A stretch of 64,000 bases of DNA from Alphaproteobacteria bacterium. Lineage in GTDB: Bacteria > Pseudomonadota > Alphaproteobacteria > VGDZ01. Positions 3,509 through 31,955 of this stretch are shown here, piece after piece. Made by a program: the position numbers and the translations under genes. The notes beneath the pieces are model-generated. The model saw only the letters and a program-made list of their open reading frames with translations, was not told the origin of the DNA and did no database searches. The stretch spans positions 18,804-82,803 of the forward strand of contig VGDZ01000003.1 in assembly GCA_016869515.1 (NCBI GenBank), given 5' to 3'. Within the stretch, counting starts at the first letter, position 1, and every line of letters begins with the position of its first letter.

Positions 3509-3518
3509 GAGCCCTGCC

Positions 3519-4550: not shown

Positions 4551-4551
4551 C

Positions 4552-5805
4552 GTGAGCCAATCCCAAGTCATCGTCGGCGGCACGCTGCTGGACGGCACCG
4601 GCGCCGACCCGGTCAAGGGCGCGATGGTGGTGATCGAAAACGGCGAGATCGTCTTCGCCGGCAAGGAAAGCGCGCGCGGCCTGCCGCGCGATGCGGCGCG
4701 GATCGACGCCTCGGGCGCCAGCATCCTGCCCGGGCTGATGGACGTGCATGTCCATATCTCGCTCAACGCGCCCGCGGACCTGGTGGCCGAGGTGGTCGGA
4801 CGGCCGCTCGGCCAGGTGGCGTTCGAGGTCGCGGCCAATCTGCGCCAGACCGTGGCCGCGGGCGTCACCACCATCCGCACCGTCAGCGACCTGGCTCATC
4901 TCGACATCGCCGCCCGCGATGCCATCCGCAAGGGCATCGCCATCGGTCCGCGCATCCATCCCTGCGGCAAGGGCCTGACCACCACCGGCGGCCATGGCCA
5001 GTTGCTGCCGTGTTGGCTGTGCCAGTCGCATGGCGAGCTCAGCGAAGTGGTCGACGGCGTCGATGCCATCCGCCGCGCCGTCCGCCTGCAGGTCCAAGCC
5101 GGCGCCGCCTGGATCAAGCTGTTCCAGACCGGCGGCGTGGTCGATCCCGAGGGCCGCATCGACGCCGAGGAATTCACGCCGAGCGAATTCGCCGCCGCGG
5201 TCGAGACCGCGCATACCGCGGGACTGCCGGTGGCGGTGCACGCCCACAACCGCGCCGGCATCCTGCGTTCGATCGCCGAGGGCTGCCGCTCGATCGAGCA
5301 CGGCATGCATTTCGACGAGGAATGCGCCGCCGCGGCGCGGGCCAAGGGCGCCTACTACGTCCCGACGCTGACGGTGATGAACCGCATCATCCGCCACGGC
5401 GCCCAGGCCGGCATTCCCGACTACATGATCAAGAACGTGCGCGAGCGCCTGACCAAGCACCACCAATACGTCAAGCACGCCTTCGACATCGGCGTCGGCC
5501 TGGCTTGCGGCACCGATGCCGGCTCGCTCTTGACGCCGCACGGCTCGGCCGGTCGCGAAGTGGCGCATTTCGTCGATTGCGGGCTGAGCGTGCCGCAGGC
5601 GGTCAGCGCGGCGACGCTGGTGTCTGCGCGCATGCTCAAGGCCGAGGACAAGGTCGGCTCGCTGGCCGGCGGCAAGCGCGGCGATGCGATCGTGGTCGAG
5701 GGCGACGTCATGGCCGATGTGCGGCGGCTGGAAGTCGCCGGCAACATGCGCGCGGTGATGGTCGACGGACGCGTTGTGGCGCGCGCCGGCCATGCCCTGA
5801 GCTGA
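4552..5805 (+). CDS. Amidohydrolase-family metal-dependent hydrolase (imidazolonepropionase / Xaa-Pro dipeptidase-like)
   Basis: GTG start 2 nt after paralog 2 stop; N-terminal HxH metal motif DVHVHISLN; later conserved His/Asp (AVHAHN, GTDAGS). Confidence 0.8.
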   Translation: MSQSQVIVGGTLLDGTGADPVKGAMVVIENGEIVFAGKESARGLPRDAARIDASGASILPGLMDVHVHISLNAPADLVAEVVGRPLGQVAFEVAANLRQTVAAGVTTIRTVSDLAHLDIAARDAIRKGIAIGPRIHPCGKGLTTTGGHGQLLPCWLCQSHGELSEVVDGVDAIRRAVRLQVQAGAAWIKLFQTGGVVDPEGRIDAEEFTPSEFAAAVETAHTAGLPVAVHAHNRAGILRSIAEGCRSIEHGMHFDEECAAAARAKGAYYVPTLTVMNRIIRHGAQAGIPDYMIKNVRERLTKHHQYVKHAFDIGVGLACGTDAGSLLTPHGSAGREVAHFVDCGLSVPQAVSAATLVSARMLKAEDKVGSLAGGKRGDAIVVEGDVMADVRRLEVAGNMRAVMVDGRVVARAGHALS

Positions 5806-5822
5806 AGCGGAAGGAACCCGTC

Positions 5823-6791
5823 ATGCGCATCGGTACGCTATCGGTCAGGCCCGGCCAACGCCGCTCGGGTCAGCTGGTGCTCGGCCATTATCCCGACGGG
5901 CCGATCGTGGCCCCGCTGACGGTGGTGCGCGGCAAGCGCCCCGGCAAGACGCTGTGGATCCAGGGCTGCCTCCACGGCCAGGAGGTCGGCGGCACCGTCG
6001 GCCTGATCCGCTTTCTCGAGCGGCTCGACCCGGCTCGGATCGAGGGCGCGGTGATCGCGGTCAAGCTGGCCAATCCGCTGGCCTTTCGCGGCTATGCCCG
6101 CAACACCCCGATCGACGGCATCAACCTCAACCGGGTCTTTCCCGGCGACGCCGCGGGCTATCACTCCCAGCAGGTGGCGCATGCGCTGATGAGCACGGCG
6201 ATCGGCCACGCCGACGCTTTGGTCGATCTGCATTCCGGCGGCGAGAGCCACATCGTGCCGTTCTACGCGCTCTATCGCGACGACGGCTCGGCCGCCTCGC
6301 GCGAGGCCGGGCGCCTGGCACGAGCCGCGGCCACGGCCGACATTTGGGCTTCGCGCGATGCTTGGCTGGACGGAGCGCTGTTGACCCATTTCACGCTGCG
6401 CGGCAAGCCCGCCGTGATCGTCGAATGCGGCGGTGGCGGCGGCGTCAGCGAGCAGCAAGTTGCCAATTTCGCCGGCGCGCTCGAAGGCATGGCGCGGGCG
6501 CTGGGCATACTGCCCGGCCGGCCGCCCAGGCGCGCGCGCTATCGGGTGATGGACCAGGCGCTGCTGGTCTACAACCGCAAGGGCGGGCTGTTCCGCCCGG
6601 CGGTCGAGCCCGGCGCCGTCGTCCGCAAGGGCCAGGCGCTGGGGGCGATGCTCGACTTCGATGGCCGCGTCGTCGAGACTTTGGTTTCGCCCAACGGTCC
6701 GGCCTATGTCGCCGCCTTGCCGCGGCGCTACATGGCGCTGCACTCGGGCGCGCTGATCGCCGAAACCATCCGCATCGTCGAGGGAGGCTGA
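5823..6791 (+). CDS. AstE/AspA-family (M14-like) deacylase, paralog 3
   Basis: ATG 5823 with the long ORF 5010..6791 trimmed to the first ATG after the amidohydrolase stop; CLHGQEVGG, NLNRVFPG, IVECGGGGG; forms a second subfamily together with paralog 4. Confidence 0.8.
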   Translation: MRIGTLSVRPGQRRSGQLVLGHYPDGPIVAPLTVVRGKRPGKTLWIQGCLHGQEVGGTVGLIRFLERLDPARIEGAVIAVKLANPLAFRGYARNTPIDGINLNRVFPGDAAGYHSQQVAHALMSTAIGHADALVDLHSGGESHIVPFYALYRDDGSAASREAGRLARAAATADIWASRDAWLDGALLTHFTLRGKPAVIVECGGGGGVSEQQVANFAGALEGMARALGILPGRPPRRARYRVMDQALLVYNRKGGLFRPAVEPGAVVRKGQALGAMLDFDGRVVETLVSPNGPAYVAALPRRYMALHSGALIAETIRIVEGG

Positions 6792-6792
6792 C

Positions 6793-7776
6793 ATGGCCGC
6801 GGCCAGGAATTTCCGCATCGGCAGCGCCCTCGCCCGTCCCGGCAAGCGGGTCGAGGGCGAGTTGGTGCTGGGCCATTATCCCGATGCGCCGATCGCCACC
6901 AAGGTCACCATCGTCTCGGGCACGCGGCCGGGGCCGGTGCTGTGGGTGCAGGGCTGCATCCACGGCCCCGAGGTCGGCGGCGTGGTCGCCATGCTGCGTT
7001 TGCTCGAACGCCTCGATCCGCGCCGCATGCGCGGCAGCATCGCCTGCATCATGCTGGCCAATCCGACCGCCTTCCGCGGCTATTCGCGCAACACGCCGGT
7101 CGATACCACCAATCTCAACCGCGTCTTCCCCGGCGCGGCCGACGGCACGCACAGCCAGCAGAATGCGCACGTCCTGATCGAGACCGCGGCTTCGGTGGCC
7201 GATGCGGTGCTGGATCTGCATTCCGGCGGCGATCGCTCGCGCGTGCCCTATTACGGGCTCTATTGGGCCGAGAATTCGGACGCCTCGCGTGAGGCCGGAC
7301 GCCTCGCCCGCGCCTGCGGTACGCGCGACATCTGGGCCTCGATCGACGATTGGCTGGGCGGCGCCATGTTCACCGTGCTGACCAAGCGCGGCATTCCCTC
7401 GCTGATCGTCGAATGCGGCGGCGGCGGCCAGGTGCCCGAAGCCCATGTCGCCAATTTCGTCGCCGCCATGACCGGCGTGGCGCAATCCATGGGCATCCTG
7501 CCCGGCCGGCCCAAGCGCTTTGCGCGCTATCGCGTGTTCGACGAAAGTGCCCTGATCTACAGCCGCAAGGGCGGACTGTTCCGGCCGCTGGTCGAACCCG
7601 GCGACATCGTCGAGAAAGGCCATGTGCTGGGCGAGATCGTCGATCTCTCGGGCAAGGTGGTGGAACGGCCGCGGGCCAGCATCGGCCCGTCCTACATCGC
7701 CTCGATCCGCCGGCCCTGGATGCCGGTCTATTCGGGCGACCAGATCGCCGAATGCAACCGCGTCATCGCGAGCTGA
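6793..7776 (+). CDS. AstE/AspA-family (M14-like) deacylase, paralog 4
   Basis: ATG 6793 two nt after paralog 3 stop; CIHGPEVGG, NLNRVFPG, LIVECGGGG; high similarity to paralog 3. Confidence 0.8.
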   Translation: MAAARNFRIGSALARPGKRVEGELVLGHYPDAPIATKVTIVSGTRPGPVLWVQGCIHGPEVGGVVAMLRLLERLDPRRMRGSIACIMLANPTAFRGYSRNTPVDTTNLNRVFPGAADGTHSQQNAHVLIETAASVADAVLDLHSGGDRSRVPYYGLYWAENSDASREAGRLARACGTRDIWASIDDWLGGAMFTVLTKRGIPSLIVECGGGGQVPEAHVANFVAAMTGVAQSMGILPGRPKRFARYRVFDESALIYSRKGGLFRPLVEPGDIVEKGHVLGEIVDLSGKVVERPRASIGPSYIASIRRPWMPVYSGDQIAECNRVIAS

Positions 7777-7783: not shown

Positions 7784-8701
7784 CTAATCCAGGCCGACGG
7801 CGCGGCGGTAAAGCGCCTCCGCCTCCAGCGTCACCGGCCCGGGGCAGCCGCGGCCGATGGCGCGGCCATCGACCGCGCGCACCGGCGTCACCCCGCCCAG
7901 CGTGCCGGTGACAAAGGCCTCGTCGGCCGCATAGACCTCGGCCAGCGTGAAATCGCATTCCCGCGCCTGATTTCCGGCGGCGCGCCAGGCCTCGATCACG
8001 CTGCGCTGGGTGATGCCGGGAAAGCTGTAGCGATGGGTCGAGGTCCACAGCTCGCGGCCGCGGACGATGAAGAAATTGGTCGAGTTGCAGGAGGCGACGA
8101 AACCCCGCGGATCCAGCATCAACGCCTCGTCGGCGCCGGCCTTGATCGCCTGGATCAGCGCCTGGATCAGGTTTAGCCGGCTGTGCGAATTGAGCCGCAT
8201 GTCGAACTGGTCGGGCGCGGTGGTGCGGAAGGTCGAGGTGAATAGGGCATAGCCCCGCCGCTTGGCCTCGGGCGGCGGCGCCTTGTATTCGGCCACGATC
8301 ACCACCGTCGCCCCGCCGACCACGAAACGCGGATCCTGGTTGGGCGTGCGCTTGACGCCGCGTGTCACCATCACCCGCAGATGCGCGCCGTCAGTCATGG
8401 CGTTGCGTTCCAGCGTCGCCGCGATGGCGCGCTTCAGTCCATCGCGATCAAATCCGATGTCGAGGTCGATCGCCCGCGCCCCTTCGAAAAGCCGGTCGAG
8501 ATGCGCCTCGAGGCTGATCAGCCTTCCCTTGGCCAGGCGCAGCCCCTCCCACACCCCATCGCCCAGCACGAAGCCGGAATCGAACACCGAGACCCGTGCG
8601 CGGTCGCGCGGCACGAATTCGCCATTGACGTAGACCAGCACCGCGTCGTTGCGGGGATCGGGCAGGTAGGCCTGCGCGCTTTGTGCCGCCGTCGGGTTCA
8701 T
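7784..8701 (-). CDS. Class IV (fold-type IV) aminotransferase, branched-chain amino acid / D-amino acid aminotransferase family
   Basis: 305-aa ORF with ATG at 8701; fold-type IV motifs (ExHLDRL, NxFxV, TGTLGGVTPV). Confidence 0.8.
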   Translation of the reverse strand: MNPTAAQSAQAYLPDPRNDAVLVYVNGEFVPRDRARVSVFDSGFVLGDGVWEGLRLAKGRLISLEAHLDRLFEGARAIDLDIGFDRDGLKRAIAATLERNAMTDGAHLRVMVTRGVKRTPNQDPRFVVGGATVVIVAEYKAPPPEAKRRGYALFTSTFRTTAPDQFDMRLNSHSRLNLIQALIQAIKAGADEALMLDPRGFVASCNSTNFFIVRGRELWTSTHRYSFPGITQRSVIEAWRAAGNQARECDFTLAEVYAADEAFVTGTLGGVTPVRAVDGRAIGRGCPGPVTLEAEALYRRAVGLD

Positions 8702-8711
8702 GGTTGCGACC

Positions 8712-9476
8712 TCAGAGGCTGAACTGTTTATGGCTGGCGATGAAGGCCCGAGTCGCCGCCTGACGCGGTTCCTTCAGCACCTCGGCCGGCGTCCCCTGCT
8801 CGTGGATCAGTCCATCGGCCAGGAACAGCACGCGCGAGGCGACATGATAAGCGAACCCCAGCTCGTGGGTGACCAGCAGCATGGTGCGGCCGTCCTCGGC
8901 CAAGGCGCGGATCGTCCCCAGCACCTCGCCGACCAGCGCCGGATCCAGCGCCGAGGTCGGCTCGTCGAACAGCAGCAGCGCCGGATCCATCGCCAGCGCC
9001 CGGGCGATCGCCACGCGCTGCTTCTGTCCGCCGCTGAGATGGGCCGGGTAGGCATCGGCCTTGTCGGCCAGGCCGACCCGCGCCAGCTCGGCCCGGCCCC
9101 GCGCCTCGGCCTGGACCCGGTCTTGGCCGAGCACGGTCAGCGGCCCCTCCATGACGTTGCCCAGCGCGGTCATGTGCGGAAACAGGTTGAAGTGCTGGAA
9201 CACCATCCCGACCTGACGGCGGATTTGGGTCAGTTCGCGCTCGGCATAGCGGCGGCGGCCGTCGCGCTCGCTGCCGACGACCTGGCCGCCGAATTCGACC
9301 CGGCCCTCGTCCGGCAGTTCCATGAAGTTGATGCAGCGCAGCAGCGTGCTCTTGCCCGAGCCCGATGCGCCAAGGATGGCGATGCGCTCGCCGCGCTCGA
9401 CCGTAAGGTCGATGCCGCGCAGCACCGGGTTGGCGCCGAAGCGCTTGACCAGGCCGGCGAGGCGCAACACCGTCAT
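8712..9476 (-). CDS. Polar amino-acid ABC transporter ATP-binding protein (HisP/GlnQ family)
   Basis: Walker A GASGSGKST, signature LSGGQKQRVAIARAL, Walker B LLLFDEPTSALD; start is the internal Met (MTVLRL) that overlaps the upstream permease stop (ATGA); the first 100 aa of the track ORF overlap the permease gene. Confidence 0.85.
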   Translation of the reverse strand: MTVLRLAGLVKRFGANPVLRGIDLTVERGERIAILGASGSGKSTLLRCINFMELPDEGRVEFGGQVVGSERDGRRRYAERELTQIRRQVGMVFQHFNLFPHMTALGNVMEGPLTVLGQDRVQAEARGRAELARVGLADKADAYPAHLSGGQKQRVAIARALAMDPALLLFDEPTSALDPALVGEVLGTIRALAEDGRTMLLVTHELGFAYHVASRVLFLADGLIHEQGTPAEVLKEPRQAATRAFIASHKQFSL

Positions 9477-10132
9477 TCGCCCCCCTTCAGCCGCCGCTCG
9501 AGCCAATAGCTCAGCTGCACCAGCGGCCAGAGAATGACGGAGAAAATCGCCGCCACGGCGGTATAGACCTCGATCGGATTGTAGTAGAGCGAAGCGATCA
9601 GCTTGCCCTGCTGCAGCAGCTCGACATAGGCCACCGCCGAAGCCAGCGTCGACATCTTGAAGATCTCGATGGCACGGTTGGCCAGCGCCGGCAGCATGCG
9701 CTTGATCGCCTGCGGCAGGATCACGCGCCGCATCGCCTGCAGCCAGCTCATGCCCAGCGCCCGCGCTCCGTCCCATTGGCCGCGCTCGATCGACTGGATG
9801 CCGCCGCGGTAGATCTCGGCCGAGAACGCCGCCGAGTTGAGCGAGATGCCCAGCACCGCGGCCGTCAGCGGCCCGATCTGGAACGGCAGCAGGATCGGCA
9901 GCGCGAAGAAGAACCAGATGATCTGCACCAGCACCGGCGTGTTGCGGAAGAACTCGACAAACGCGGTCGCCGGCGCCCGCAGCCAGGGATTGCGGGCATA
10001 TCGCCCGAGTCCGACCGGCAGCCCGAGCCCCAATCCCAGCACCAGGCAGATGGCGAAGATACGCAGCGTGCCGACGGCGCCGATCGCCAGCACGTCGGCA
10101 TGCTCGATCACCGTGGCGAAATCCCAGCGCAT
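9473..10132 (-). CDS. Amino-acid ABC transporter permease (HisM/GlnP family)
   Basis: Starts at MRWDFATV (Met 107 of the track ORF); TM-rich; EAA loop IERGQWDGARALGMSWLQAMRRVILPQA. Confidence 0.85.
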   Translation of the reverse strand: MRWDFATVIEHADVLAIGAVGTLRIFAICLVLGLGLGLPVGLGRYARNPWLRAPATAFVEFFRNTPVLVQIIWFFFALPILLPFQIGPLTAAVLGISLNSAAFSAEIYRGGIQSIERGQWDGARALGMSWLQAMRRVILPQAIKRMLPALANRAIEIFKMSTLASAVAYVELLQQGKLIASLYYNPIEVYTAVAAIFSVILWPLVQLSYWLERRLKGGE

Positions 10133-10809
10133 CAGCCGACCGTCCCTTCGCCGCTGCGCGCCAGCCTGAGTTCGATCCGCCGCGCCAACAGACTCGCGCC
10201 GTAGATCACGGTGAAATAGGCCAGCGCCACCGCGGTATAGGTCTCGAGCGGGCGGAAGGTCTTTTGCGACACCTCGTTGGCGGCGAACAGCAGATCGGCA
10301 TAGGAGATGGTGGCGACCAGAGTGGTGGTCTTCATCAGTTCGATGGCGCGTTCCATGAAGGCCGGGATCATGCGCTTGACCGCCTGCGGCAGGACGATGC
10401 GCCGCAGCGCCTGGCCGCGGTTCATGCCCAGCGCCCGGGCGGCGTCCCACTGGCCACGCTCGATCGATTCGATGCCGGCACGGAACACTTCGGCGAAGAA
10501 CGCCGCCGATTGGATCGAGAAGGTCACCAGCGCCGCCAGATAGGGCGTCATTTCGACGCCGACCACCAGCGGCGCCGCGAAGTAGAACCAGAACAACTGC
10601 ACCAAAGGCGGCGTGGTGCGGAAGACCTCGATCACCAACCCGGCCGGCCAGGCTGCCCAGGGCCGCCGCGACAGCCGCATCAGCGCGAGCCCGAGGCCAA
10701 GCGCGACGCCGAACGCCAGCGCCGCGCCGGTCAGGCGCAGGGTGTTGAACAGCCCGATCGCCAGCAGATCGAGATGGGCGGCGACCGGCGCGAAGTCCCA
10801 GCGATACAC
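10132..10809 (-). CDS. Amino-acid ABC transporter permease (HisQ family)
   Basis: 225 aa; MYRWDFAPV start resembles the neighbouring permease; EAA loop IERGQWDAARALGMNRGQALRRIVLPQA. Confidence 0.85.
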   Translation of the reverse strand: MYRWDFAPVAAHLDLLAIGLFNTLRLTGAALAFGVALGLGLALMRLSRRPWAAWPAGLVIEVFRTTPPLVQLFWFYFAAPLVVGVEMTPYLAALVTFSIQSAAFFAEVFRAGIESIERGQWDAARALGMNRGQALRRIVLPQAVKRMIPAFMERAIELMKTTTLVATISYADLLFAANEVSQKTFRPLETYTAVALAYFTVIYGASLLARRIELRLARSGEGTVG

Positions 10810-10825
10810 CGGCCTCGCGCCGGCG

Positions 10826-11662
10826 CTACTTGATCATTTCCTTCATCACCGGCGGCGCCAGCTTGGGATCGAGCCCGAACTCGCTCAGCGCCTGCTCGTA
10901 CCATTTCTGGGTCTGGCCGCTCTGGTAGTACTGCACCAGCTGCTTGTCGACCCAGGCGGCGAAAGCGGTGTCGCCCTTGCGCAGCGCAGCGCTCGAGGCC
11001 TGCGATTGCGCCGGCGTCGGCACCACGATCGCGCCCTTGCCCAGCCGCTGGCGCGCCGCCAGCAGCGGCGGGTGGAACAAGCAGACGGCGTCGGCGCGCC
11101 CCGACTGGAAGGCGGCGATGGCGGCGGCGTTGTCGGGATAGCGCTGGATCTCGGCCTTGGCGGCGTGCTCGGTGAGGAAGCGATCCATCGACGAAGCCTG
11201 GGGCACGGCGATGCGCACGCCCGGCTTGTTGAGATCCGCCCACGCCTTGACCGGCAGGTCCTCGCGCGCCAGCACCGCCAGCGAATAGAAGAGCAGCGGC
11301 GCTTCCGGGAAGTCGACCGCCTGGCGCCGTTCGGCGGTGGCGTCGAGCATGAACATCAAGTCGATCTTGTCCGATTGCAACGCCGCGATCGCGGTGCCCC
11401 AGGCGACCTCGACCGTCTCCATCTTGACGCCCAGCGTCTGCGCCATCGCCCGGCCCATGGCGATGCCGAGGCCGGAATTCCATTCCCCGCTGCGCGGGTC
11501 CTTGGAATACCAGGGCGGCGCCTGGGTGACGCCGATGCGGAAAGTGCCGCGTTTTTTGACGTCGTCGAGCGTGGCGGTCTGGCCAAAGGCGAGGAAGGGC
11601 TGCCCCGCAAGGCCGGCGCCGGCGGCGATGATGGCTAGGCTGTGGCGGCGGGTGATGGTCAT
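10826..11662 (-). CDS. Amino-acid ABC transporter substrate-binding protein (family 3), Tat/Sec signal peptide
   Basis: Start at the internal Met (MTITRRHSLAIIAAGAGLAG, twin-arginine-like signal), ATG at 11662; periplasmic-binding-fold sequence. Confidence 0.8.
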   Translation of the reverse strand: MTITRRHSLAIIAAGAGLAGQPFLAFGQTATLDDVKKRGTFRIGVTQAPPWYSKDPRSGEWNSGLGIAMGRAMAQTLGVKMETVEVAWGTAIAALQSDKIDLMFMLDATAERRQAVDFPEAPLLFYSLAVLAREDLPVKAWADLNKPGVRIAVPQASSMDRFLTEHAAKAEIQRYPDNAAAIAAFQSGRADAVCLFHPPLLAARQRLGKGAIVVPTPAQSQASSAALRKGDTAFAAWVDKQLVQYYQSGQTQKWYEQALSEFGLDPKLAPPVMKEMIK

Positions 11663-11854
11663 GGCGGTCCTCCCAAGCTTGGCTTTCGGGTTATCGGCGC
11701 ACTCTATCCACCGCGCCCTGGCCGGGCAACTCACGCCAAATTGCTCTTCGGCTTGGCCGAATTTCGAGGCCTGAAACTCAAGCCCGGTTCCCTATCTGTC
11801 CGCCAGGCCTCATGGGCCGGTCGGGCGTCTCACAGAGCGGTCGGCGCTGATGGC

Positions 11855-11975
11855 GTTGCCATAGCCGGTGTCGGCGTCGGCCATCACCGGAATGTCGACC
11901 GCATCGCAGACATAGCCGGGTACTTGCACCACCTCGCTCATCGTCGTCAGGCCGACACCGGGCTCGCCGACAGCG
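11855..11975 (-). pseudogene. Gene remnant: ~120-bp internal fragment of a PEP mutase/isocitrate lyase-family gene, about 95% identical to 29417..29535
   Basis: DNA read directly: gccatagccggtgtcggcgtcggccatcaccggaatgtcgaccgcatcgcagacatagccgg..ttgcaccacctcgctcatcgtcgtcaggccgaca.cgggct.gccga matches the gene at 28747..29688 with about five mismatches; encodes VGLTTMSEVVQVPGYVCDAVDIPVMADADTGYGNAI inside an otherwise unrelated 92-aa ORF. Confidence 0.6.
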
Positions 11976-12180
11976 AATAGCCCGCCTCGGCCTCGCGATG
12001 ACGGTCGGCCTTGACCCGCTCCAGCGTCATGCCGCGCATGGCGAATTGCTTGAACTCCTGAAGCATGGGCATTCTCCCGCAGGATCACGGCCGGCAGTTA
12101 GGCAGAAACCCAAACCGCCCGTACCGCGGCGGCGCGTGATCGGGGCTTGCGCCCGGTGCGGCGATGCCGACAATGTCGCC

Positions 12181-12833
12181 ATGCCGACCCGGACCGACAC
12201 CGAACTGCTCGCACGCTGCCGACGCATCGGCACCAGCACCTGGTCCGACGCGCTGGACGAATGCGGCATCGACGGCGTGGTGCGGGGGCTGGTCAAGCGC
12301 GGCGGCCAAGGCCGCGTCGCCGCCTTCGCCGTCACCGCCACCGAAATCGTCGGCCACCGCGGCCAATTCGCCAAGAGCGAATTCGGCGTCGGCCGGCTAG
12401 TCGCGGCCTGCGGCCCCGATGTCGCCTTGCTGGTCGACATGGGCGGAGCCGAGGTCTCGACCTTCGGCGGGCTGGCCTCGCTGGCGGCCTCGATGCGTCG
12501 CGCCGGCGCCGTAATCGTCGACGGCGCCTGCCGCGATGCCGACGAGATCGCCGCCACCGGCCTTTGGCTCGCCAGCCGGCACGTCACGCCCACCACCGGC
12601 AAGACGCGGGTCAAGCTGACGGCGATGGGCGAGCCGGTGACCATCGGCGGCATCGTCGCCCGCCAGGGCGATCTGGTGGTGGCCGACGACACCGGTATCG
12701 CCATCGTTCCGCGCGGCGAGGTCGCTCGCGTGCTGGCGGTGGCCGAGCGCATGCTCGGCATGGATCATCAGATCGAGCGCGCCATCCGCGACGGCCAAAG
12801 CTTCGCCGACGCCGCCAAGGCGGCCAACTACAT

Positions 12834-12837
<4 letters not shown>
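12181..12837 (+). CDS. RraA / 4-hydroxy-4-methyl-2-oxoglutarate aldolase (HMG/CHA aldolase, oxaloacetate decarboxylase) family protein
   Basis: ATG 12181 (Met 62 of the track ORF); about 218 aa; RraA-like core (GAVIVDGACRDADEIAATGL, DDTGIAIVP). Confidence 0.7.
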
Positions 12838-13873
<1,036 letters not shown>

Positions 13874-13877
<4 letters not shown>

Positions 13878-14686
13878 GGTTGTTCCTCCTCGGCTACGAA
13901 CTTGACCGGCCGCGGCCGCGTCAGCGCCTGCAAGGCCAGCAGCAGGGGCACGATCATCAGAAAGAACACCAGGGTATAGGCGCTGCCGATTTCGAGCCGC
14001 AGCGAGGCATAGGCGTCGGCCAAGCCGACCGGCAGGGTCTTGGTCAGGGGCGTGTGCAAGAGCCAGGTCATGTTGAACTCGCCCATCGACAGCGTCACCA
14101 CCATCAGCGATCCGGCCAATATGCCCGAACGGCAATTGGGCAGGACGATGTGGAAGAACCGCTGGGCGAAACCGGCGCCTAGGCTGGCGGCGCCCTCCTC
14201 CAGCGTCTTGAGATCGATCGCGCTCAGCACCGCCAGCACCGAGCGCACCATGAAGGGCAAGGTGAACAGCACATGCCCGACCAGGATGAAGCTCCACGAG
14301 GTGCGGAAGGCGCCGGCCGCACCGTAGGTCACGATCAGCGCCAACGCCGTCGCCAAGCCCGGCACCGCCACCGGCATCACCAGCAATTCCTCGATGGCGC
14401 GCGACAACGCGCTTTGACGCTTGGCCAGCACATAGGCCGCCGGCACGCCCAGCACCAGCGTGCCGGCCAGACAGCACAGCGAAATCCCGATCGAAAGAAA
14501 AATCGTCTCGCGATAGCCCGACCACACCTCGCCCACCCAGCGCAGCGTCAGCCCGCTCTGCACGCCGCTGAGGTAATTGGCGGTCAGCCCGGCCAGCATC
14601 GAAAGGATCACCGGCACGATCAGGAAGGCGCAGACCACCAGCGTGAATCCCAGCTGCAGCGAGAACAGGAGGCGCCGCTCGGCCAT
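13874..14686 (-). CDS. ABC transporter permease (PotC-like)
   Basis: Start at MAERRLLF (ATG 14686, 2 nt after upstream gene stop); TM-rich; EAA loop LEEGAASLGAGFAQRFFHIVLP. Confidence 0.8.
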
Positions 14687-14687
14687 T

Positions 14688-15521
14688 TCAGCCCGCCGCC
14701 GCCACACTCGAGCCGGCCGCCGTCCGCGCCAACGCCAGCACCACCCAGGTCACCGCGCCGAGAACGAAGCTCAGCGCTGCCGCCATCGCCATGTTGGCCT
14801 GCAGCGTGAACTCGGTATAGATCACCATCGGCAGCACGTTGATGCGCGTCGCCAGCGTGAAGGCGGTACCGAAGGCGCCGACCGCGGTGGCGAAGCAGAT
14901 CGCCCCGGCCGAGATGAAGGCCGGCTTGAGTCCCGGGATGATGACGTCCAGCACCACCCGCCAGGTCGGCGCACCGAGCGAACGCGCCGCCTCCTCCAGT
15001 TTGGGATCGAGCTTCTCGGCCGCGGCCATCACGGTGAGAATGGTGCGCGGGATCGAGAAATAGACATAGCCCATGAACAACCCGGCCATGGAATAGGCGA
15101 ACACCAGCTTCTCGCCGGTCAGGAACTGCGTGACGTCGCCGATCAGGCCCTGGCGCCCGGCCAGCATGATCACCATGAAGCCGATCACCACGCCCGGAAA
15201 AGCCAACGGCAAGGTCAGCATCGCCACCAGCAAGCCATTGCCCGGGAACTTGCGGCGCTGCAGGAACACGCCGCTCAGGCCGCTGACGATCAGCGTGGCG
15301 ACGGTGGTGGCCATCGCCAAACCGAGCGTCGACACCAGGCTGGCGAAATAATTGCGGTCGGTGACGATGGCGGCATAGGCGGCGAAGCCTTCGGCGCCGC
15401 TGCCGCCGATGAAGAACAGCCGGGTCAGCGGCAAGAGGAAAAACGCCAGGAAGAAAATTCCGGCCGGCAACAGCAGAGAAAAGAGTCGGAACGACTCGCG
15501 GCGCATGGCGGTCGCGCTCAC
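14688..15521 (-). CDS. ABC transporter permease (PotB-like)
   Basis: 277-aa TM protein; EAA loop LEEAARSLGAPTWRVVLDVIIP; GTG at 15521, alternative ATG at 15506. Confidence 0.8.
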   Translation of the reverse strand: MSATAMRRESFRLFSLLLPAGIFFLAFFLLPLTRLFFIGGSGAEGFAAYAAIVTDRNYFASLVSTLGLAMATTVATLIVSGLSGVFLQRRKFPGNGLLVAMLTLPLAFPGVVIGFMVIMLAGRQGLIGDVTQFLTGEKLVFAYSMAGLFMGYVYFSIPRTILTVMAAAEKLDPKLEEAARSLGAPTWRVVLDVIIPGLKPAFISAGAICFATAVGAFGTAFTLATRINVLPMVIYTEFTLQANMAMAAALSFVLGAVTWVVLALARTAAGSSVAAAG

Positions 15522-15570
15522 GCGGGCGGCGGGAAGTCGGGGCGGCGGCCGCCCGCCGCCCCTGGCGCGC

Positions 15571-16581
15571 TCAGTTCACTTCGTTCTTGTAGCGATCGAT
15601 GATCATCTTCTGCGCCGTCGCCAGCCGCTTGAGGTCGATCGGCTTGGCGCGGGCGTATTCGCTGTCGGGCAGGAATTTGGACTTGGCGTCGGCCGACAGC
15701 TTGTCGGCGAACACCGGCCGCAAATAGGCATTGCCCCACATCACCTGGCTGTCGTCCGACAGCGTGAAGTCCAGCACTTTCTGGCCGTTGGCCGGATTGG
15801 GTCCGCCCTTGACCAGGCCCATGACGTAGGGGAACACCACCGTCCCCTCTCTGGGGATGACGAACTGGACCGGCGCCTTGTCGGTGTACTGGCCGCGATA
15901 GGCGTTGAAGTCGTAGTCGAACAGGATCGGGATTTCGCCCGAGATCACCCGCGCATAGCTGGTCTGCTTGGGCACGATCGGCTGGTTCTTGGACAGGTCC
16001 TTGAAATACTTGATGGCGGCGTCGATGTTGTCGTAGTTGCCGCCCAGCGCCAGGTTGATCGCCATCACGCCCAACTGGCCGACCGCGGCCGAAGTCGGAT
16101 CGAGATAGCCGACCAGGCCCTTGTATTCGGGCTTGAGCAGGTCGGCCCAGGATTGCGGCACCGGCTTGTTGCCCAGCGCCTGCTTGTTGACGAACAGGCC
16201 GAGCGTGCCGGAGTGGATGGTGAACCAAAAACCGTCCGGGTCCTTGAGTCCGGCCGGAATCCGGTCCCAGCCCGCGGGCTTGTAGGGCACCAGCACGCCC
16301 GCATCCTTGGCCGGATCGGCGGCGATGCCGCCGAGATAGGTGATGTCGGCGACCGGATTGGCCTTTTCGGCGATCAGGGCGGCGATGGCCTGGCCCGAAT
16401 TCTTGTTGTCGGGCGGAACCTGGATGCCGAGCTTGGACTGGATCGCGCGCAGCTGCGAACCCCAATCGGCCCATTCCGGCGGGCAGTTGTAGCAGATGGC
16501 GCGGCTCTGGGCGGCGGTCTCGGCCGCCGGCAGCAGCGCCGCAATCACCAGCGCTGCGGCGGTCAGGATCGGTTTCAACAT
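15571..16581 (-). CDS. ABC transporter periplasmic substrate-binding protein (PotD/PotF polyamine/Fe3+/aminoethylphosphonate-type fold)
   Basis: Start at MLKPILTAAALVIAALLPAAETAAQ (signal peptide), ATG 16581; the upstream 360 aa of the track ORF are antisense to the + strand gene at 16744. Confidence 0.8.
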   Translation of the reverse strand: MLKPILTAAALVIAALLPAAETAAQSRAICYNCPPEWADWGSQLRAIQSKLGIQVPPDNKNSGQAIAALIAEKANPVADITYLGGIAADPAKDAGVLVPYKPAGWDRIPAGLKDPDGFWFTIHSGTLGLFVNKQALGNKPVPQSWADLLKPEYKGLVGYLDPTSAAVGQLGVMAINLALGGNYDNIDAAIKYFKDLSKNQPIVPKQTSYARVISGEIPILFDYDFNAYRGQYTDKAPVQFVIPREGTVVFPYVMGLVKGGPNPANGQKVLDFTLSDDSQVMWGNAYLRPVFADKLSADAKSKFLPDSEYARAKPIDLKRLATAQKMIIDRYKNEVN

Positions 16582-16743
16582 CGCGTTTTCCCCCGGCTGA
16601 AACGTTGACGATGGAGCATGATTCGAAATGCTAGAGGATGAATCGGACCGGCGCCAGAGTGTCTTCCATTCCACCGCCTGGGCGCGCGCTTGACGAAATC
16701 GGCGCGGATGCGAAAGTCCGCCAGCGGAACGGAGGACAGGTCG

Positions 16744-17631
16744 ATGGGTCAGAGCAAAGCGGCGCGGTTGCGGGCGGCGCTCGGCGGCGGGGACATCGTC
16801 GTCGCCGCCGGGGTCTACGACATGATCTCGGCGCGCATCGCCGACGGCATGGGCTTCAGCGCGCTCTACATGACCGGCTACGGCACGGTCGCCTCGGCGC
16901 TGGGCATCGCCGATGCCGGTCTGGCCAGTTATACCGAAATGGTCGAGCGCGTCGCGGTGCTGGCTGGCGGCACGGCGACGCCGATGATCTGCGACGCCGA
17001 CACCGGCTATGGCGGGCTGCTGAACGTGCGGCGCACGGTGCAGGGCTACGAGGCGGCGGGCGCCGCCGGCATCCAGATCGAGGACCAGGAGATGCCGAAG
17101 AAATGCGGTCATACGCTGGGCCGCCGCGTCGTGCCGCTGGAGGACATGGTGCTCAAGATCCGAGTCGCGGTCGAGGCGCGGCGCGATCCGGCAACGCTGA
17201 TCGTGGCGCGCACCGACTGCCGCACCACGCTCGGCATCGACGAGGCGCTGCGGCGCGGCGAGGCCTTCGCCAAGGCCGGCGCCGACGTGGTGTTCATCGA
17301 GAGTCCAGAAAGCCGCGCCGAACTCGAACGCATCGGCAAGGCGCTTTCGGGTTCGGCCTGGCTGCTGTGCAACATGGTCTATGACGGCCGCACGCCCGAG
17401 ACTCCGGCCGACGACCTCAAGCGCATGGGCTTCAGCATCGCCATCTATGCCGGCATGGCGCACAAGGCCGCGGCCGGCGCGCTGGAAGCGGCCTATCGCC
17501 ATCTCAAGGTCAAGCGCACCCAGATGGACATGCCGGGGCCGATGTATTCCAGCGCCAAGATGCACGAACTGATGGGTTTCCCCGAGGTCTGGGCGTTCGA
17601 GAAGCGCTGGGACCAGGGCCAGGCCGGCTGA
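16744..17631 (+). CDS. PEP mutase / isocitrate lyase superfamily enzyme (2-methylisocitrate lyase / dimethylmalate lyase / carboxyPEP mutase-like), paralog 1
   Basis: ATG 16744 (Met 19 of the track ORF); hallmark motifs DADTGYGG, IQIEDQ, KKCGH, VVFIE. Confidence 0.8.
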   Translation: MGQSKAARLRAALGGGDIVVAAGVYDMISARIADGMGFSALYMTGYGTVASALGIADAGLASYTEMVERVAVLAGGTATPMICDADTGYGGLLNVRRTVQGYEAAGAAGIQIEDQEMPKKCGHTLGRRVVPLEDMVLKIRVAVEARRDPATLIVARTDCRTTLGIDEALRRGEAFAKAGADVVFIESPESRAELERIGKALSGSAWLLCNMVYDGRTPETPADDLKRMGFSIAIYAGMAHKAAAGALEAAYRHLKVKRTQMDMPGPMYSSAKMHELMGFPEVWAFEKRWDQGQAG

Positions 17632-17644
17632 GCGGAGGCACGAG

Positions 17645-18322
17645 ATGGAACTGTCGAACAAGACCGCGCGTCAACTCTACGAGGAGATCAAGGCCAAGCC
17701 GCCGCGCAAGCGCATGGGCTTCGGCCGCCGCGCCGGGTTGATCAACATCGACCTGCAGCGCTCCTACACCAAGGTCGGCACCTACGTCACCGCCTACGAG
17801 ACCGACCCGCGCCAGATCGAATACGTCAACCGGCTTGCCGAGCTTTGCCGCCGCGCCGGCTTCCCGGTGGTGTGGACCTATGTCGCCTACATGGCCGACG
17901 GCTCGGATGCCTGCGCCTGGGGCACGCGCTCGAACACCCCCGACAGCCTGCAGAACATCAAGGAGGGCTCGGACCGGGCGACGCTGGACGAGCGGCTGGC
18001 GATCGACCGCCAGCGCGACATGGTGGTCAACAAGCGCATGGCCTCGGGCTTCCACGAGACGCCGGTGCTGTCCTGGTTCAACTGGCACCAGGTCGACACC
18101 GTGATCGTCACCGGCGGCTCGACCTCGGGCTGCGTGCGGGCGACGGTGGTCGACGCGATCTCGCGCGGCTTCCGGCCGGTGGTGCCCGAGGAATGCGTCG
18201 CCGACAAGCACGAAAGCCCGCACTTCTCCAATCTCTACGACATGGCGTTGAAATACGCCGACGTGATTCCGGTGTCCGAGGTGGTGGGTTGGCTGAATCA
18301 ACGGCCCGAGGCGGCGTCGTGA
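17645..18322 (+). CDS. Isochorismatase-family cysteine hydrolase (N-carbamoylsarcosine amidase / maleamate amidohydrolase-like)
   Basis: 225 aa; catalytic-Cys context VIVTGGSTSGCVRATVVDA; conserved Asp and Lys positions typical of the family. Confidence 0.8.
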   Translation: MELSNKTARQLYEEIKAKPPRKRMGFGRRAGLINIDLQRSYTKVGTYVTAYETDPRQIEYVNRLAELCRRAGFPVVWTYVAYMADGSDACAWGTRSNTPDSLQNIKEGSDRATLDERLAIDRQRDMVVNKRMASGFHETPVLSWFNWHQVDTVIVTGGSTSGCVRATVVDAISRGFRPVVPEECVADKHESPHFSNLYDMALKYADVIPVSEVVGWLNQRPEAAS

Positions 18323-19242
18323 GCGAGGCCCCGCGACGGGCCGAGCCCGGGCTTTACGATTTCGTCCCGCCGCCCAAGCGTCCGCGCATCACATGGCCGA
18401 ACGGCGCGCGGCTGGCGTTCTGGGTCGCGCCCAACATCGAGTTCTACGAGCTCGATCCGCCGCCCAACGCCGCCCGCAACATGTGGACCCGACCCAACCC
18501 CGACGCCATGAACTATGGCTGGCGCGAATTCGGCAACCGGGTCGGCGTGTGGCGCATGATCGACGTCATGGCCGCGCTCGGCATCCGCGGCTCGGTCTCG
18601 CTCAACGTCGCCATCTGCGACCATCACCCCGAGATCGTCCGGCGCTGCCTCGACCTCGGTTGGGAGCTGTTCTCCCACGGCGTCTACAACACCCGCTTCG
18701 TCGCCAACATGAGCGAGGAGCAGGAACGCGCCATGATCCGCGACGTGGTCGACACCATCCGCCGCGCCTCGGGCCAGCAGGTCGAGGGCTGGCTGTCGCC
18801 GGCGCTGTACAACAACGACCGCACCATGGATCTCCTGGCCGAGCACGGCATCCGCTACACCTGCGATCTGTTCCATGACGACCAGCCGACCCCGGTGCGG
18901 ACCAAGACCGGGCGGATGTGCAGCATCCCCTATTCGCTCGAGATGAACGACATCCTGGTCTATGCGCGGCAGATGCAGACGCCGCGCGAATACGGCCGCA
19001 TGATCAAGGCCCAGTTCGACCAGCTCTACGAGGAGGGCGCCGAAAGCGGCACGGTGATGTGCGTGCCGCTGCATCCCTACATGGTCGGCCAGGCGCATCG
19101 GCTGGAGCCGTTCGCCGAGGCGCTGGATTACGTCGCGCGCCACGACAAGGTGTGGCTGGCGACCGGGGCCGAGATCGCGCGCTGGTATCTCGACCGTCAT
19201 TTCGATGCCGCGGTCGCCGCCGCGCGCGCCCCGGGAGGCTGA
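18319..19242 (+). CDS. Polysaccharide deacetylase (CE4 / PuuE-allantoinase-like) family protein, paralog 1
   Basis: GTG 18319 overlapping upstream stop (GTGA); the upstream part of the track ORF overlaps the isochorismatase gene; CE4-like motifs (WPNGARLAFWV, HH, LHPYMVG). Confidence 0.7.
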   Translation: MSEAPRRAEPGLYDFVPPPKRPRITWPNGARLAFWVAPNIEFYELDPPPNAARNMWTRPNPDAMNYGWREFGNRVGVWRMIDVMAALGIRGSVSLNVAICDHHPEIVRRCLDLGWELFSHGVYNTRFVANMSEEQERAMIRDVVDTIRRASGQQVEGWLSPALYNNDRTMDLLAEHGIRYTCDLFHDDQPTPVRTKTGRMCSIPYSLEMNDILVYARQMQTPREYGRMIKAQFDQLYEEGAESGTVMCVPLHPYMVGQAHRLEPFAEALDYVARHDKVWLATGAEIARWYLDRHFDAAVAAARAPGG

Positions 19243-19244
19243 CC

Positions 19245-20171
19245 ATGGCGCTGCCCGAGAGCTATCTGCAATATCCCCGCCGCGGTCCGGGCATGGATCA
19301 CGATTTCTATGCCTGGTCGCCGCTGCCAAATCGCAAGCCGATCCGATGGCCGCAAGGGGCACGCATTGCGCTGTGGGTCAACCTGACGGTCGAGCACTTT
19401 CCGCTCGACGCGGTCAACAAGCCGTTCCTGCCGCCGGGCGGGCTCGAGCGCGCCTATCCCGATCTCTGGAACTACACCTTGCACGATTACGGCAATCGAG
19501 TCGGCGTCTACCGGCTCTATCGCATGCTCGAAGGGCTCGGGCTCAAGGCGACGGTGGCGATGAACGCAGCCATCGCCGATCGTTATCCCTTTCTTGTCCA
19601 GGATACGGCGCGCCGGGGCCATGAGATCATGGCCTGCGGCGTCGACATGAACCGATTGCATCACTCCGGCCTTGCGATCGAGCGCGAGCGCGAGTCGATC
19701 GGAACCTCGGTCGAGACCCTGCGCCGCGCCTCGGGGCAGAAGGTGCGCGGCTGGATGTCGCCGGCCAAGGCCGAGAGCTTCAACACGCTCGGGTTGCTGC
19801 GCGAGCACGGCATCGACTATGTCTGCGACTGGCCCAACGACGACCTGCCCTATCCGCTGACCGGGCCGGCCGCTGGCCTTCACGCCATGCCGCATGCCTC
19901 CGAGCTGTCGGATCTGTGGTGCCTGCATCAATGGCATCACACCACCGACGAATTCGCCCAGCAGATCGGCGACCAGTTCCGGCTGCTCCATGCCGAGGCG
20001 GCGAAATCGGGCGGGCGGGTGATGAGCCTGACCCTGCACCCGTGGATCGCCGGACAGCCGCATCGCATCCGCCCGATCCGCGAGGCGCTGGCGGCGATCC
20101 TCCGCCATGCCGGGGTGTGGAACGCGACCGGCGCCGAGATCCTGGACGCCTTCAAGGCCCAACCCGGCTGA
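19245..20171 (+). CDS. Polysaccharide deacetylase (CE4 / PuuE-like) family protein, paralog 2
   Basis: ATG 19245 two nt after paralog 1 stop; parallel architecture to paralog 1 (WPQGARIALWV, LHPWIAGQPHR). Confidence 0.75.
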   Translation: MALPESYLQYPRRGPGMDHDFYAWSPLPNRKPIRWPQGARIALWVNLTVEHFPLDAVNKPFLPPGGLERAYPDLWNYTLHDYGNRVGVYRLYRMLEGLGLKATVAMNAAIADRYPFLVQDTARRGHEIMACGVDMNRLHHSGLAIERERESIGTSVETLRRASGQKVRGWMSPAKAESFNTLGLLREHGIDYVCDWPNDDLPYPLTGPAAGLHAMPHASELSDLWCLHQWHHTTDEFAQQIGDQFRLLHAEAAKSGGRVMSLTLHPWIAGQPHRIRPIREALAAILRHAGVWNATGAEILDAFKAQPG

Positions 20172-20176
20172 ACGCC

Positions 20177-21930: not shown

Positions 21931-21939
21931 GCGGCCGGC

Positions 21940-22956: not shown

Positions 22957-22958
22957 GG

Positions 22959-23816: not shown

Positions 23817-23825
23817 CGGCCGATC

Positions 23826-24800: not shown

Positions 24801-24824
24801 GTGCCGTGACGCGCGCCCGGCGTC

Positions 24825-26657: not shown

Positions 26658-26711
26658 CTTTGGACCTTTGAAGCGCTCTTGCCTGCTCATGTCGCGTCCC
26701 CTTCTTCTCGC

Positions 26712-27713: not shown

Positions 27714-27733
27714 GGCGGATTCTCCTTGCGGCG

Positions 27734-28750
27734 TCAGTTGAAACGCGGGTTCTCGATCAGATGGCAGGCGGCCTGGTGGCCCTCGCCGACCGCCACCGGC
27801 TGCGGCGCGACCTCGCGGCACAGCGTGCCGGCGTGCCGACAGCGGGGGTGGAAGTGGCAACCGCGCGGCGGGTCTATCGGGTTGGGCACCGCGCCCGGCA
27901 GGGCGATGCGCGCGCGCCGGCGTGGGCCCATCGCCGGCACCGCCGCCATCAGCGCCTGGGCATAGGGGTGCCGCGGCGAGTCGAGCACGGCGCGCGCCGG
28001 GCCGATCTCGACGATGCGGCCGAGATACATCACCGCCACGCGCCGGCAGATATGGCGCATGGTCGACAGGTCGTGCGAGACGTAGAGGATCGCCATCGCC
28101 TGCTCCTCGGCGAAGCGGCGCAGCAGGTTCAGGATTCCGGCCCGGATCGAAATGTCGAGCATCGACACCGGCTCGTCGGCCACCAGGAAACTGGGCTCGA
28201 CGGCGATGGCGCGGGCGATGGCGACGCGTTGCAATTGGCCGCCGGAAAGCTGATGCGGAAAGCGCTCGAGATAGGTCGCGACCGGACTAAGGCCGGCGCG
28301 CTCGAGCGCGCGCACTATTCGTTCCCGGCGTCCCGCCGGGCTGTCGTCGAAATGAATCGCCACCGGCTCGCCGACCGCGTCGGCCACGGTGAAGCGCGGA
28401 TTGAGCGCCTCATAGGGGTTCTGGAACACGATCTGGGCGCGGCGGCGGAATGCCTTGAGCCGCGCGCCCGAAAGTCCGGCGGTATCTTCGCCTGCAAATC
28501 GGATCTCGCCGGCGCTGGGCGAGAGCAGGCGCAGCACCGTCATGCCGGTGGTCGACTTGCCGCAGCCGCTTTCGCCGGCGAGGCCCAGCACTTCGCCCGG
28601 GACCAGGCTGAAGCCGACGCCGTCGACCGCGCGCACATGGCGTTCGACGGCGCCGGCCAGAGTCGCAATCAGGCCGCGCCGCACCGGAAACCATTTGCGC
28701 AGCGCCTCGACCGCGATCACCGGGGCGGGCCCCGGCGCCGGTGCGCTCAC
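27734..28750 (-). CDS. Dipeptide/oligopeptide-type ABC transporter ATP-binding protein (DppF/OppF-like)
   Basis: GTG 28750 overlapping upstream gene stop (GTGA); Walker [10 protein letters not shown], signature LSGGQLQRVAIARAI, Walker B LVADEPVSMLD; the upstream 160 aa of the track ORF are out-of-frame overlap. Confidence 0.8.
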   Translation of the reverse strand: MSAPAPGPAPVIAVEALRKWFPVRRGLIATLAGAVERHVRAVDGVGFSLVPGEVLGLAGESGCGKSTTGMTVLRLLSPSAGEIRFAGEDTAGLSGARLKAFRRRAQIVFQNPYEALNPRFTVADAVGEPVAIHFDDSPAGRRERIVRALERAGLSPVATYLERFPHQLSGGQLQRVAIARAIAVEPSFLVADEPVSMLDISIRAGILNLLRRFAEEQAMAILYVSHDLSTMRHICRRVAVMYLGRIVEIGPARAVLDSPRHPYAQALMAAVPAMGPRRRARIALPGAVPNPIDPPRGCHFHPRCRHAGTLCREVAPQPVAVGEGHQAACHLIENPRFN

Positions 28751-29688
28751 GGCCGGAAGCCGATCGAGCCCTCGTAACGTCGCTGCATCTCTTCGGTCGG
28801 CAGGTACTGTTCCTCGAGCTTGCGGATCGCGGGGAAGCCGACAAAGGTATGGAAATCGGCCGCCGGGTGGCCGTTGAGTTCCGGCTTGAGCCGCTCCTCC
28901 AGCGCCGCGTCCTCGCGCGCGAAATCGTGCAGATAGTCCCACATCGCCCGCGCCGCGGCGCGCATCGCGCCGCCGGCATTGGCGACCAGGAACACCTTCA
29001 TCTGGTTCATCTCGGCCAAGGTCAGGTTGGGCGAAACCCCGGTCCGGTTGTAGAGCAGCGGCGCCTTGACCTCGCGCGCCACCCGCTCCATCTCGGCGCG
29101 GCTCAGCAGGCCCTCGGGAAAGAACACGTCCATGCCGGCGTCGATGTAGGCCTTGCCGCGGCGGATGGTCTCTTCGAGGCTGCCGCCGGCAACGCCGCGC
29201 GCATCGCAGCGCGCGATCAGCACCACGTCCTTGTCGCAACGATCGCGCGTCGCCACCGCGGCGCGGTACTTGCCGACCGCTTCCTCCAGCGAGATGATCT
29301 GCTTGCCCGAGACGTGGCCGCAGCGCTTGGGCGCGACTTGGTCCTCCATGAACATGCCGCCGACGCCGGCCTTGATGAACTGCTCGACCGTGCGGATGGC
29401 GTTGATGGCGTTGCCGTAGCCGGTGTCGGCGTCGGCCATCACCGGAATGTCGACCGCATCGCAGACATAGCCGGTGACTTGCACCACCTCGCTCATCGTC
29501 GTCAGGCCGACATCGGGCTTGCCGATCAGCGTCGCCGACAGCGAATAGCCCGAGACGCCGACGGTCTCGAAGCCGGCCTTTTCGGCGATCTGCGCCGACA
29601 TGGCGTTGAACACGCCCGGCTGCACGTAGGTCTTGCCGCCCCGCAGCATTTCGCGGAAACGACGGGACATGCCCTTGAGTCCGGCCAT
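28747..29688 (-). CDS. PEP mutase / isocitrate lyase superfamily enzyme, paralog 3
   Basis: ATG 29688 (MAGLKGM); motifs DADTGYGN, FMEDQ, KRCGH; source gene of the remnant at 11855..11975. Confidence 0.8.
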   Translation of the reverse strand: MAGLKGMSRRFREMLRGGKTYVQPGVFNAMSAQIAEKAGFETVGVSGYSLSATLIGKPDVGLTTMSEVVQVTGYVCDAVDIPVMADADTGYGNAINAIRTVEQFIKAGVGGMFMEDQVAPKRCGHVSGKQIISLEEAVGKYRAAVATRDRCDKDVVLIARCDARGVAGGSLEETIRRGKAYIDAGMDVFFPEGLLSRAEMERVAREVKAPLLYNRTGVSPNLTLAEMNQMKVFLVANAGGAMRAAARAMWDYLHDFAREDAALEERLKPELNGHPAADFHTFVGFPAIRKLEEQYLPTEEMQRRYEGSIGFRP

Positions 29689-31944: not shown

Positions 31945-31955
31945 GAGGTGCCGCC

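Follow-up and report, generated by a model that had tools for sequence, protein, structure and literature searches.

The 518-bp gap at positions 11663-12180 of the window (the whole stretch of DNA that was analysed, 64 kb) contains a piece of PEP-mutase paralogue 3 (P3), an intact gene elsewhere in the same window. The piece itself encodes nothing. It is very probably a non-functional, ectopic partial copy of P3 that was left by a recent illegitimate rearrangement upstream of an ABC operon. An initial annotation of this DNA had already suggested recent intragenomic duplication or recombination in a dynamic region, and that part of it stands, since the piece is a 94% copy of a P3 gene in the same genome and lies at a synteny breakpoint.

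The gap and its flanking genes

The gap has 66% GC, near the window average of 67%. The following features were mapped by GC3-based gene finding together with Pfam, and by the other evidence named with each.

7784-11662, minus strand: ABC operon of an SBP_bac_3 protein, two permeases, an ATPase and a class IV aminotransferase (Pfam)
10826..11662, minus strand: SBP_bac_3 solute-binding protein (SBP), first gene of that operon (Pfam; operon conserved in 80 related loci)
11663..11828, minus strand: leader and presumed promoter of the amino-acid ABC operon, 166 nt (sequence reading)
11829..11984, minus strand: disabled partial copy of PEP-mutase paralogue 3 (local alignment, lesions, PF13714 positions 44-91 of 240)
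11810..12088, minus strand: 92-aa GTG ORF of the initial annotation, crossing the mscL-like start out of frame into the P3 fragment
11947..12066, minus strand: chimeric 39-aa ORF with an MscL-like N-terminus, 16 further codons and P3 codons 47-52
11985..12030, no strand assigned: 46-nt stretch between the mscL-like start and the P3 fragment, no match found
12031..12066, minus strand: probable first 12 codons (MLQEFKQFAMRG) of an mscL-type gene (weak Pfam PF01741 match, NCBI product name)
12181..12837, plus strand: RraA-like/HMG-aldolase-like protein, 218 aa (PF03737; identical to P0001)
12834 to ~16600, minus strand: second ABC operon (gene finding and Pfam)
16690-17631, plus strand: PEP-mutase paralogue 1 (Pfam PF13714)
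26712-27860, minus strand: PEP-mutase paralogue 2 (Pfam PF13714)
28747..29688, minus strand: P3, intact PEP_mutase/isocitrate-lyase-family gene, 313 aa (PF13714 E 1.3e-48; GGAGGG ribosome-binding site)
29383..29552, minus strand: donor segment within P3 (BLASTN and alignment; ancestral residues retained)

The gap had been described as lying between two ABC operons. An ABC operon does lie on one side, but on the other the RraA-like gene precedes the second operon. The RraA-like product is identical to a protein on record (P0001, 'RraA family protein') from the Alphaproteobacteria source MAG. The RraA-like gene, on the plus strand, runs towards the minus-strand ATPase gene of the second operon and overlaps it by 4 nt at 12834-12837, which leaves no room for a terminator. 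The leader of the first operon ends in GGGAGGA (11668-11674), ahead of the SBP ATG at 11660-11662, and is identical in an independent contig. For the 46-nt stretch at 11985..12030, comparison with P3, the remaining window and related loci gave nothing significant.

Both the 41-aa and the 92-aa ORFs that lie over the fragment are chimeric. The 92-aa ORF, which the initial annotation had recognised as a chimera, passes out of frame over the mscL-like start and then enters the P3 fragment; only its residues 37-83 match PF13714, its product is not on record in the assembly collection, and it is spurious. In the 39-aa ORF a 13-nt deletion shifts the frame to a stop codon at 11947. This ORF has no homologue but itself among 5.8 billion proteins.

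The N-terminus of the 39-aa ORF is MscL-like, a feature that the initial annotation missed. A GGGAGA Shine-Dalgarno sequence (12073-12078) lies 6 nt upstream of the ATG at 12064-12066, and a further in-frame ATG is found at 12070-12072. Among 24,736 Pfam models, MscL (PF01741) is the sole match of the N-terminal peptide, over positions 1-14 and below threshold (E 0.07-0.16). The identical 39-aa product is named 'MscL family protein' at NCBI (P0121, source MAG). Genuine PF01741 proteins begin MLQEFKKFAMRGN, MLNEFKQFAMRGN or MSMLQEFKTFAMRGN, identical to the ORF start at 11 of 12 residues, and the motif of the MscL N-terminal amphipathic S1 helix (ML.EFK.FAMRGN) is present. The two transmembrane helices and the C-terminal bundle of MscL (~120-140 aa) are missing from this 39-aa ORF, whose residues past G12 are unrelated. 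The ORF is not an MscL gene, since just the first 12-14 residues are present, and 12031..12066 is probably the 5' stump of an mscL gene as judged from those 12-14 residues.

A search with a composite MscL query returned only MscL proteins of other organisms, with no exact N-terminal match. Residues 14-44 of this query were modelled on MscL itself, so the search is partly circular and establishes no more than that the first 12 residues are typical of MscL. PDB phmmer and NCBIfam report no MscL similarity for the ORF, no mscL gene was found elsewhere in the 64-kb window, and tblastn of the 166-nt leader finds nothing of mscL or GntR at E <10. A PEP-mutase-like N-terminus was also considered for the ORF (FKQFAMRG against FREMLRGG) and rejected, as the Pfam alignment stops short of it and the fit to MscL is much closer.

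About 40 nt upstream of the mscL-like start, at 12104-12133 on the minus strand, a GC-rich hairpin is followed by TTGGGTTTCT in the manner of an intrinsic terminator. It has no upstream gene on the minus strand to terminate and is possibly an orphan remnant, but it is within chance expectation.

Match to P3 and decay of the copy

All three full paralogues in the window belong to PF13714 by Pfam, as the initial annotation had read them. P3 covers profile positions 1-235 and has 35% and 45% protein identity to paralogues 1 and 2, respectively. P3 passes none of the NCBIfam equivalog cut-offs for PrpB, CPEP mutase and PEP mutase, nor do paralogues 1 and 2 pass any, and an exact look-up of the P3 protein finds it not on record.

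The fragment (11829-11984) is a same-orientation copy of 29383-29552, which corresponds to codons 46-102 of P3. In a BLASTN search of 11301-12600 against the whole window, P3 is the sole strong non-self match of the gap region, with 11837-11975 aligned to 29392-29531 at 93.6% over 140 columns (E 1e-55); the runner-up is paralogue 2, with 77% over 69 nt. Gapped local alignment lengthens this pair to 11829-11984 against 29383-29552 once deletions of 13 nt and 1 nt in the fragment are allowed, with 147 of 156 aligned columns identical and 9 mismatches (94%). The earlier reading of ~95% identity over ~120 bp, for 11855..11975 against 29417..29535, is thus sound, with the true match slightly longer and the coordinates a few bases off. 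The longest exact run is 58 nt (11862-11919).

Self-BLAST of the 64-kb window recovers the 94% pair, and no other repeat in it is both above 88% identity and longer than 50 bp. No extra copy of the fragment is present in the window other than the P3 segment. The true paralogue pairs reach 66-76% DNA identity, with 72% between paralogues 2 and 3. The identity of the fragment to P3 (94%, core 97%) is far above this background, as in a duplicated pseudogene fragment.

Identity is uneven along the match. Over the 132 columns of the core (11853-11984) there are 4 mismatches (97%), whereas the final 24 columns (11829-11852) have 5 mismatches and the 1-nt deletion, giving ~75% identity while still in register. 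The edge is more diverged than the core by Fisher's test (p 0.005). A single recent copy event does not account for this diverged 24-nt edge.

The 13-nt deletion is flanked by GCCGA direct repeats, where P3 reads GGGCT-TGCCGATCAGCG-TCGCCGA. It spans exactly the distance from one GCCGA to the other, which is a signature of slippage, and all 21 bases past it match P3. The substitutions fall 3/3/3 over codon positions 1/2/3 and 6 of the 9 are non-synonymous, although these are small numbers. Disabling lesions without codon-position bias are again those of a duplicated pseudogene fragment. The amino-acid changes include D59G, N96S, I98D (a codon with two adjacent changes) and T100S, and at D59, N96, I98 and T100 P3 retains a state shared with or similar to that of paralogues 1 and 2. 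P3 therefore carries the ancestral state. With two frameshifting deletions and codon-blind substitutions, the fragment appears to be decaying neutrally, with P3 as the conserved donor.

The fragment is not a PEP-mutase-family gene, since both its length and its reading frame fail. PF13714 aligns to it at profile positions 44-91 of 240 only, with E 1e-4 and below the gathering score, and the full-length barrel of ~240 profile positions was not found in it. The lack of a start or stop context of its own, noted in the initial annotation, is borne out: the P3 frame has no start codon, carries two frameshifts and offers no uninterrupted frame between a start and a stop of the fragment's own. The metal-binding block PVMADADTGYGN is present and identical to P3 in frame-1 translation, as a fragment only, and the region of the DADTGYG motif is included.

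The stretch might instead act as a sense decoy in the leader, as an antisense RNA affecting P3, or through a real 39-aa protein. In favour are the match of about 156 nt to P3 mRNA, at 94% identity or complementarity, the good spacing of the GGGAGA site ahead of the 39-aa ORF, and the retention of the locus in two samples. These two samples are nearly identical throughout, so that its retention is uninformative, and the substitutions and indels look neutral. The 39-aa ORF stands without a homologue but itself, and for an RNA there is no Rfam family, excess structure or promoter-like site. With Rfam 15 at a permissive threshold, the best hits in the gap score 14-20 bits against gathering scores of 40-64 (E >0.5). 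Fold z-scores are -0.55 for the leader, -1.35 for the ORF region and -0.63 for the RraA-proximal part, with no unusual structure. No sigma-70-like site was found in the gap, and the terminator scan of the gap gives one hairpin (12133-12114, minus strand), within chance expectation. A functional RNA or small protein is very improbable here. That a P3-derived stretch in the ABC-operon leader, or an antisense transcript of it, might couple P3 expression to the neighbouring genes is speculative.

A further possibility is that a chimeric join or collapsed repeat in the assembly put P3 reads into the gap. The source is a MAG, and two contigs from one run break inside this repeat, which shows that it confuses assemblers. 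The exact SBP and RraA proteins are found on independently assembled Logan contigs. Run SRR7985589 gave two of these, L081 and L095, which match the window at 100% identity; they stop at 11891 and 11928, both within exact-repeat runs. De Bruijn assemblers break contigs inside exact repeats when two copies exist, and such breaks are thus expected from two real copies. A contig from a second run (L094, SRR16108672) spans 10922-13289 in one piece at 99.92% identity and covers the complete gap with the same two junctions, which argues against misassembly. Since the copy also differs from P3 by 9 substitutions and 2 deletions, an artefact is extremely unlikely.

The locus is carried by these two sequencing runs only. 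L094 differs from the window at 11920-11921 alone (GT to TG), where it bears the P3 state; the lineage of the window has gained one more change after copying. Its core differs from P3 at 2 positions, so that core identity ranges from 97% to 98.5%. Ongoing conversion was considered for the two differences between L094 and the window and set aside, since they amount to one dinucleotide event in a fragment that makes up ~6% of the contig and are not significant.

Elsewhere in the window, AstE/AspA-type (succinylglutamate desuccinylase/aspartoacylase) genes form tandem pairs at 2585-7776, with 69% identity between 2585-3487 and 3639-4538 and 70% between 5826-6780 and 6814-7768, and an amidohydrolase gene sits between the two pairs. 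Adjacent Aconitase_C small-subunit genes (31297-31944 and 31941-32585) have 73% DNA identity and a 4-nt overlap, and at 19916-21439 there is a separate gene for an aconitase-family large subunit. A near-perfect 72-nt palindrome at 33848-33919 (~30-nt arms, -72.8 kcal/mol, z -8.9) overlaps the stop of an M20 peptidase gene (32623-33852, plus strand) just upstream of an opposite-strand ORF at 33967-34851. Its arm sequence occurs nowhere else in the window, and the palindrome may serve as a bidirectional terminator or represent a palindromic element.

Related loci and the origin of the fragment

Eighty related loci were collected from species-representative genomes with the SBP protein as query (SBP identity 67-84%), from Reyranella, Tagaea, Rhodospirillales and also Burkholderiales. 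Upstream genes were counted in the 75 loci whose upstream sequence is 800 nt or longer. A conserved GntR/FCD regulator gene (~240 aa, co-oriented and ending right at the SBP start) is found in 54 of the 75. Neither a PEP-mutase nor an RraA gene precedes the orthologous ABC operon in any locus (0 of 80, and 0 of the 75 with usable upstream sequence), and none of the 80 has DNA similarity to the gap. The gap is a synteny breakpoint at the place where most relatives hold the regulator of the operon.

The ABC/aminotransferase operon in the window is without an adjacent GntR/FCD regulator and may be deregulated or differently controlled. The GntR genes in the window, at 34057-34500 and 45875-46219, are distant paralogues only. 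A faint 'SAKPK' likeness of the leader to GntR C-termini is visible by eye, and nothing is claimed for it.

The RraA side gives a similar picture. Homologues of RraA at 60-69% identity have unrelated neighbours, among which there is no PEP-mutase or mscL gene. A scan of metagenomes with RraA yields 12 loci, with at most 68% identity over the full protein and none of them syntenic, and BLAST against plasmids gives distant gene matches only. No mobile-element features (IS, MITE or REP) are seen in the gap, with no terminal, direct or inverted repeats and no target duplications beyond chance-length matches.

The initial annotation took the fragment for the remnant of a full-length PEP-mutase gene at this site, which the comparison with relatives and the flanks both contradict. 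Such a gene is in place in none of the 75 loci. In Smith-Waterman alignments of the flanks (11663-11828 and 11985-12075) with collinear P3 sequence, the scores are below the median of random window segments; short flank matches from MAFFT, such as AAGGCCG..ACCGTC, are not above background in this test and were discarded. Neither mark of a unitary pseudogene, collinear flank similarity or an orthologue in place in relatives, was found here. With no flank similarity and no PEP-mutase gene in relatives, the fragment is best read as an ectopic partial copy and not as in-place decay. Since the core is 97-98.5% identical to P3, point mutation cannot have erased the rest of a gene, which must either never have been here or have been deleted.

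In-place origin could be kept if an older fourth paralogue was mostly deleted and its surviving piece was recently converted by P3. One weak hint of this is the fall in identity to ~75% in the last 24 columns, in register with P3. The fragment also covers the most conserved block of the family, the block where paralogue 2 has its 77% match, and it is there that conversion between diverged paralogues would be seeded. However, the other boundary of the fragment is abrupt, and beyond 11829 and 11984 there is no collinear similarity to P3 or to paralogues 1 and 2. The start of the upstream ORF is MscL-like, with the PEP-mutase Pfam alignment ending before it. The absence of such a gene from the related loci and from beside the RraA homologues also argues against conversion, and this origin is unlikely.

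Under the preferred reading, an ectopic partial copy, an internal P3 piece of ~170 nt was copied into the gap in direct orientation. The P3 copy lies 46 nt from the truncated mscL-type start, and the gap is a mosaic of two unrelated gene pieces. The copy then lost 13 nt by GCCGA slippage and 1 nt more, and gained codon-blind substitutions, with the extra GT/TG change in one lineage. Since the relatives have at most 84% protein identity for the flanking genes, we infer the order of these events.

Two routes may have led to the copy. In the first, a tandem duplication of ~11985-29552 would have been followed by almost complete deletion of the first copy. The junction 11984|11985, equivalent to 29552|11985, is the exact join of such a duplication, and the direct orientation fits, so that this route is compatible with the data. 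In the second, loose pieces of DNA may have been captured during end-joining repair of a break. Neither route explains the diverged 24-nt edge.

The piece may also have come from another strain, whose P3 allele would have entered by transformation or conjugation and been integrated illegitimately. Part of the 6% divergence could then predate insertion, and NHEJ can integrate exogenous DNA (PMC6379672). Against this, the changes are mostly non-synonymous and at conserved residues, which fits decay after copying and not a functional allele, and the core in L094 is so close to P3 (2 positions). Direct orientation and linkage within 17.6 kb also favour a local event, and import is highly unlikely.

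Comparison with known systems and consequences

Tandem duplication followed by partial deletion leaves junction remnants of segmental duplications, as is established in bacterial genetics. Like such remnants, the fragment is a direct repeat, and its 29552|11985 join is as expected for a 17.6-kb duplication. In contrast to them, no other part of the second copy is left, and an independent deletion of ~17.4 kb must be assumed.

In pilS/pilE-type systems, ectopic conversion draws on silent partial cassettes of a surface antigen with a variable-region architecture. The fragment resembles these cassettes in being a partial copy, without a promoter, that is closely similar to a gene expressed from another locus of the genome. 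It differs in being a single, decaying, frameshifted copy of a metabolic enzyme gene without variable-region architecture.

The fragment belongs to a well-known class, the duplicated pseudogene fragment. Disabled gene fragments are common in prokaryotes (Liu et al. 2004 survey, PMC522871), and Pseudofinder detects such pseudogene fragments (PMC9336565). Like such fragments, it is a truncated and frameshifted same-genome copy in an unusually long spacer with short spurious ORF calls (PMC522871, PMC9336565). Unlike typical members, it is very short (52 codons' worth) and very young (97-98.5% core identity), is joined to a second, unrelated gene piece, and does not occupy the position of an orthologous intact gene.

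In Sinorhizobium meliloti, bacterial NHEJ (Ku/LigD) captures DNA fragments at double-strand breaks (Dupuy et al., PMC6379672). The gap shares with that system an alphaproteobacterial host, short unrelated pieces, no border homology and an implied deletion at the site. The S. meliloti case involved electroporated exogenous cassettes and an I-SceI cut, whereas the donor here is chromosomal (PMC6379672). The gap could be a natural multi-fragment patching of an alphaproteobacterial chromosomal break, in which the mscL 5' end and the P3 piece were inserted where most relatives have the GntR gene of the operon, but this is doubtful. If it is true, loss of the regulator and capture of the fragments would be one end-joining event. 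Current understanding is not challenged by the fragment; its interest would be modest, and then only on proof that it is a natural end-joining capture.

For annotation, the value of the finding is that the public 39-aa 'MscL family protein' and the 92-aa ORF are broken gene pieces and not genes. For the history of the chromosome, the fragment shows that the rearrangement at the synteny breakpoint ahead of the conserved ABC/aminotransferase operon was very recent.

A distance of 17.56 kb separates the direct repeats formed by the fragment and P3, which share the 58-nt exact run. Between them lie the RraA gene, an ABC operon, two PEP-mutase paralogues, an isochorismatase gene, an aconitase-like gene and a peptide ABC system. 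If the fragment and P3 recombined, this intervening catabolic block could be deleted or amplified, and that is the only likely consequence of the fragment.
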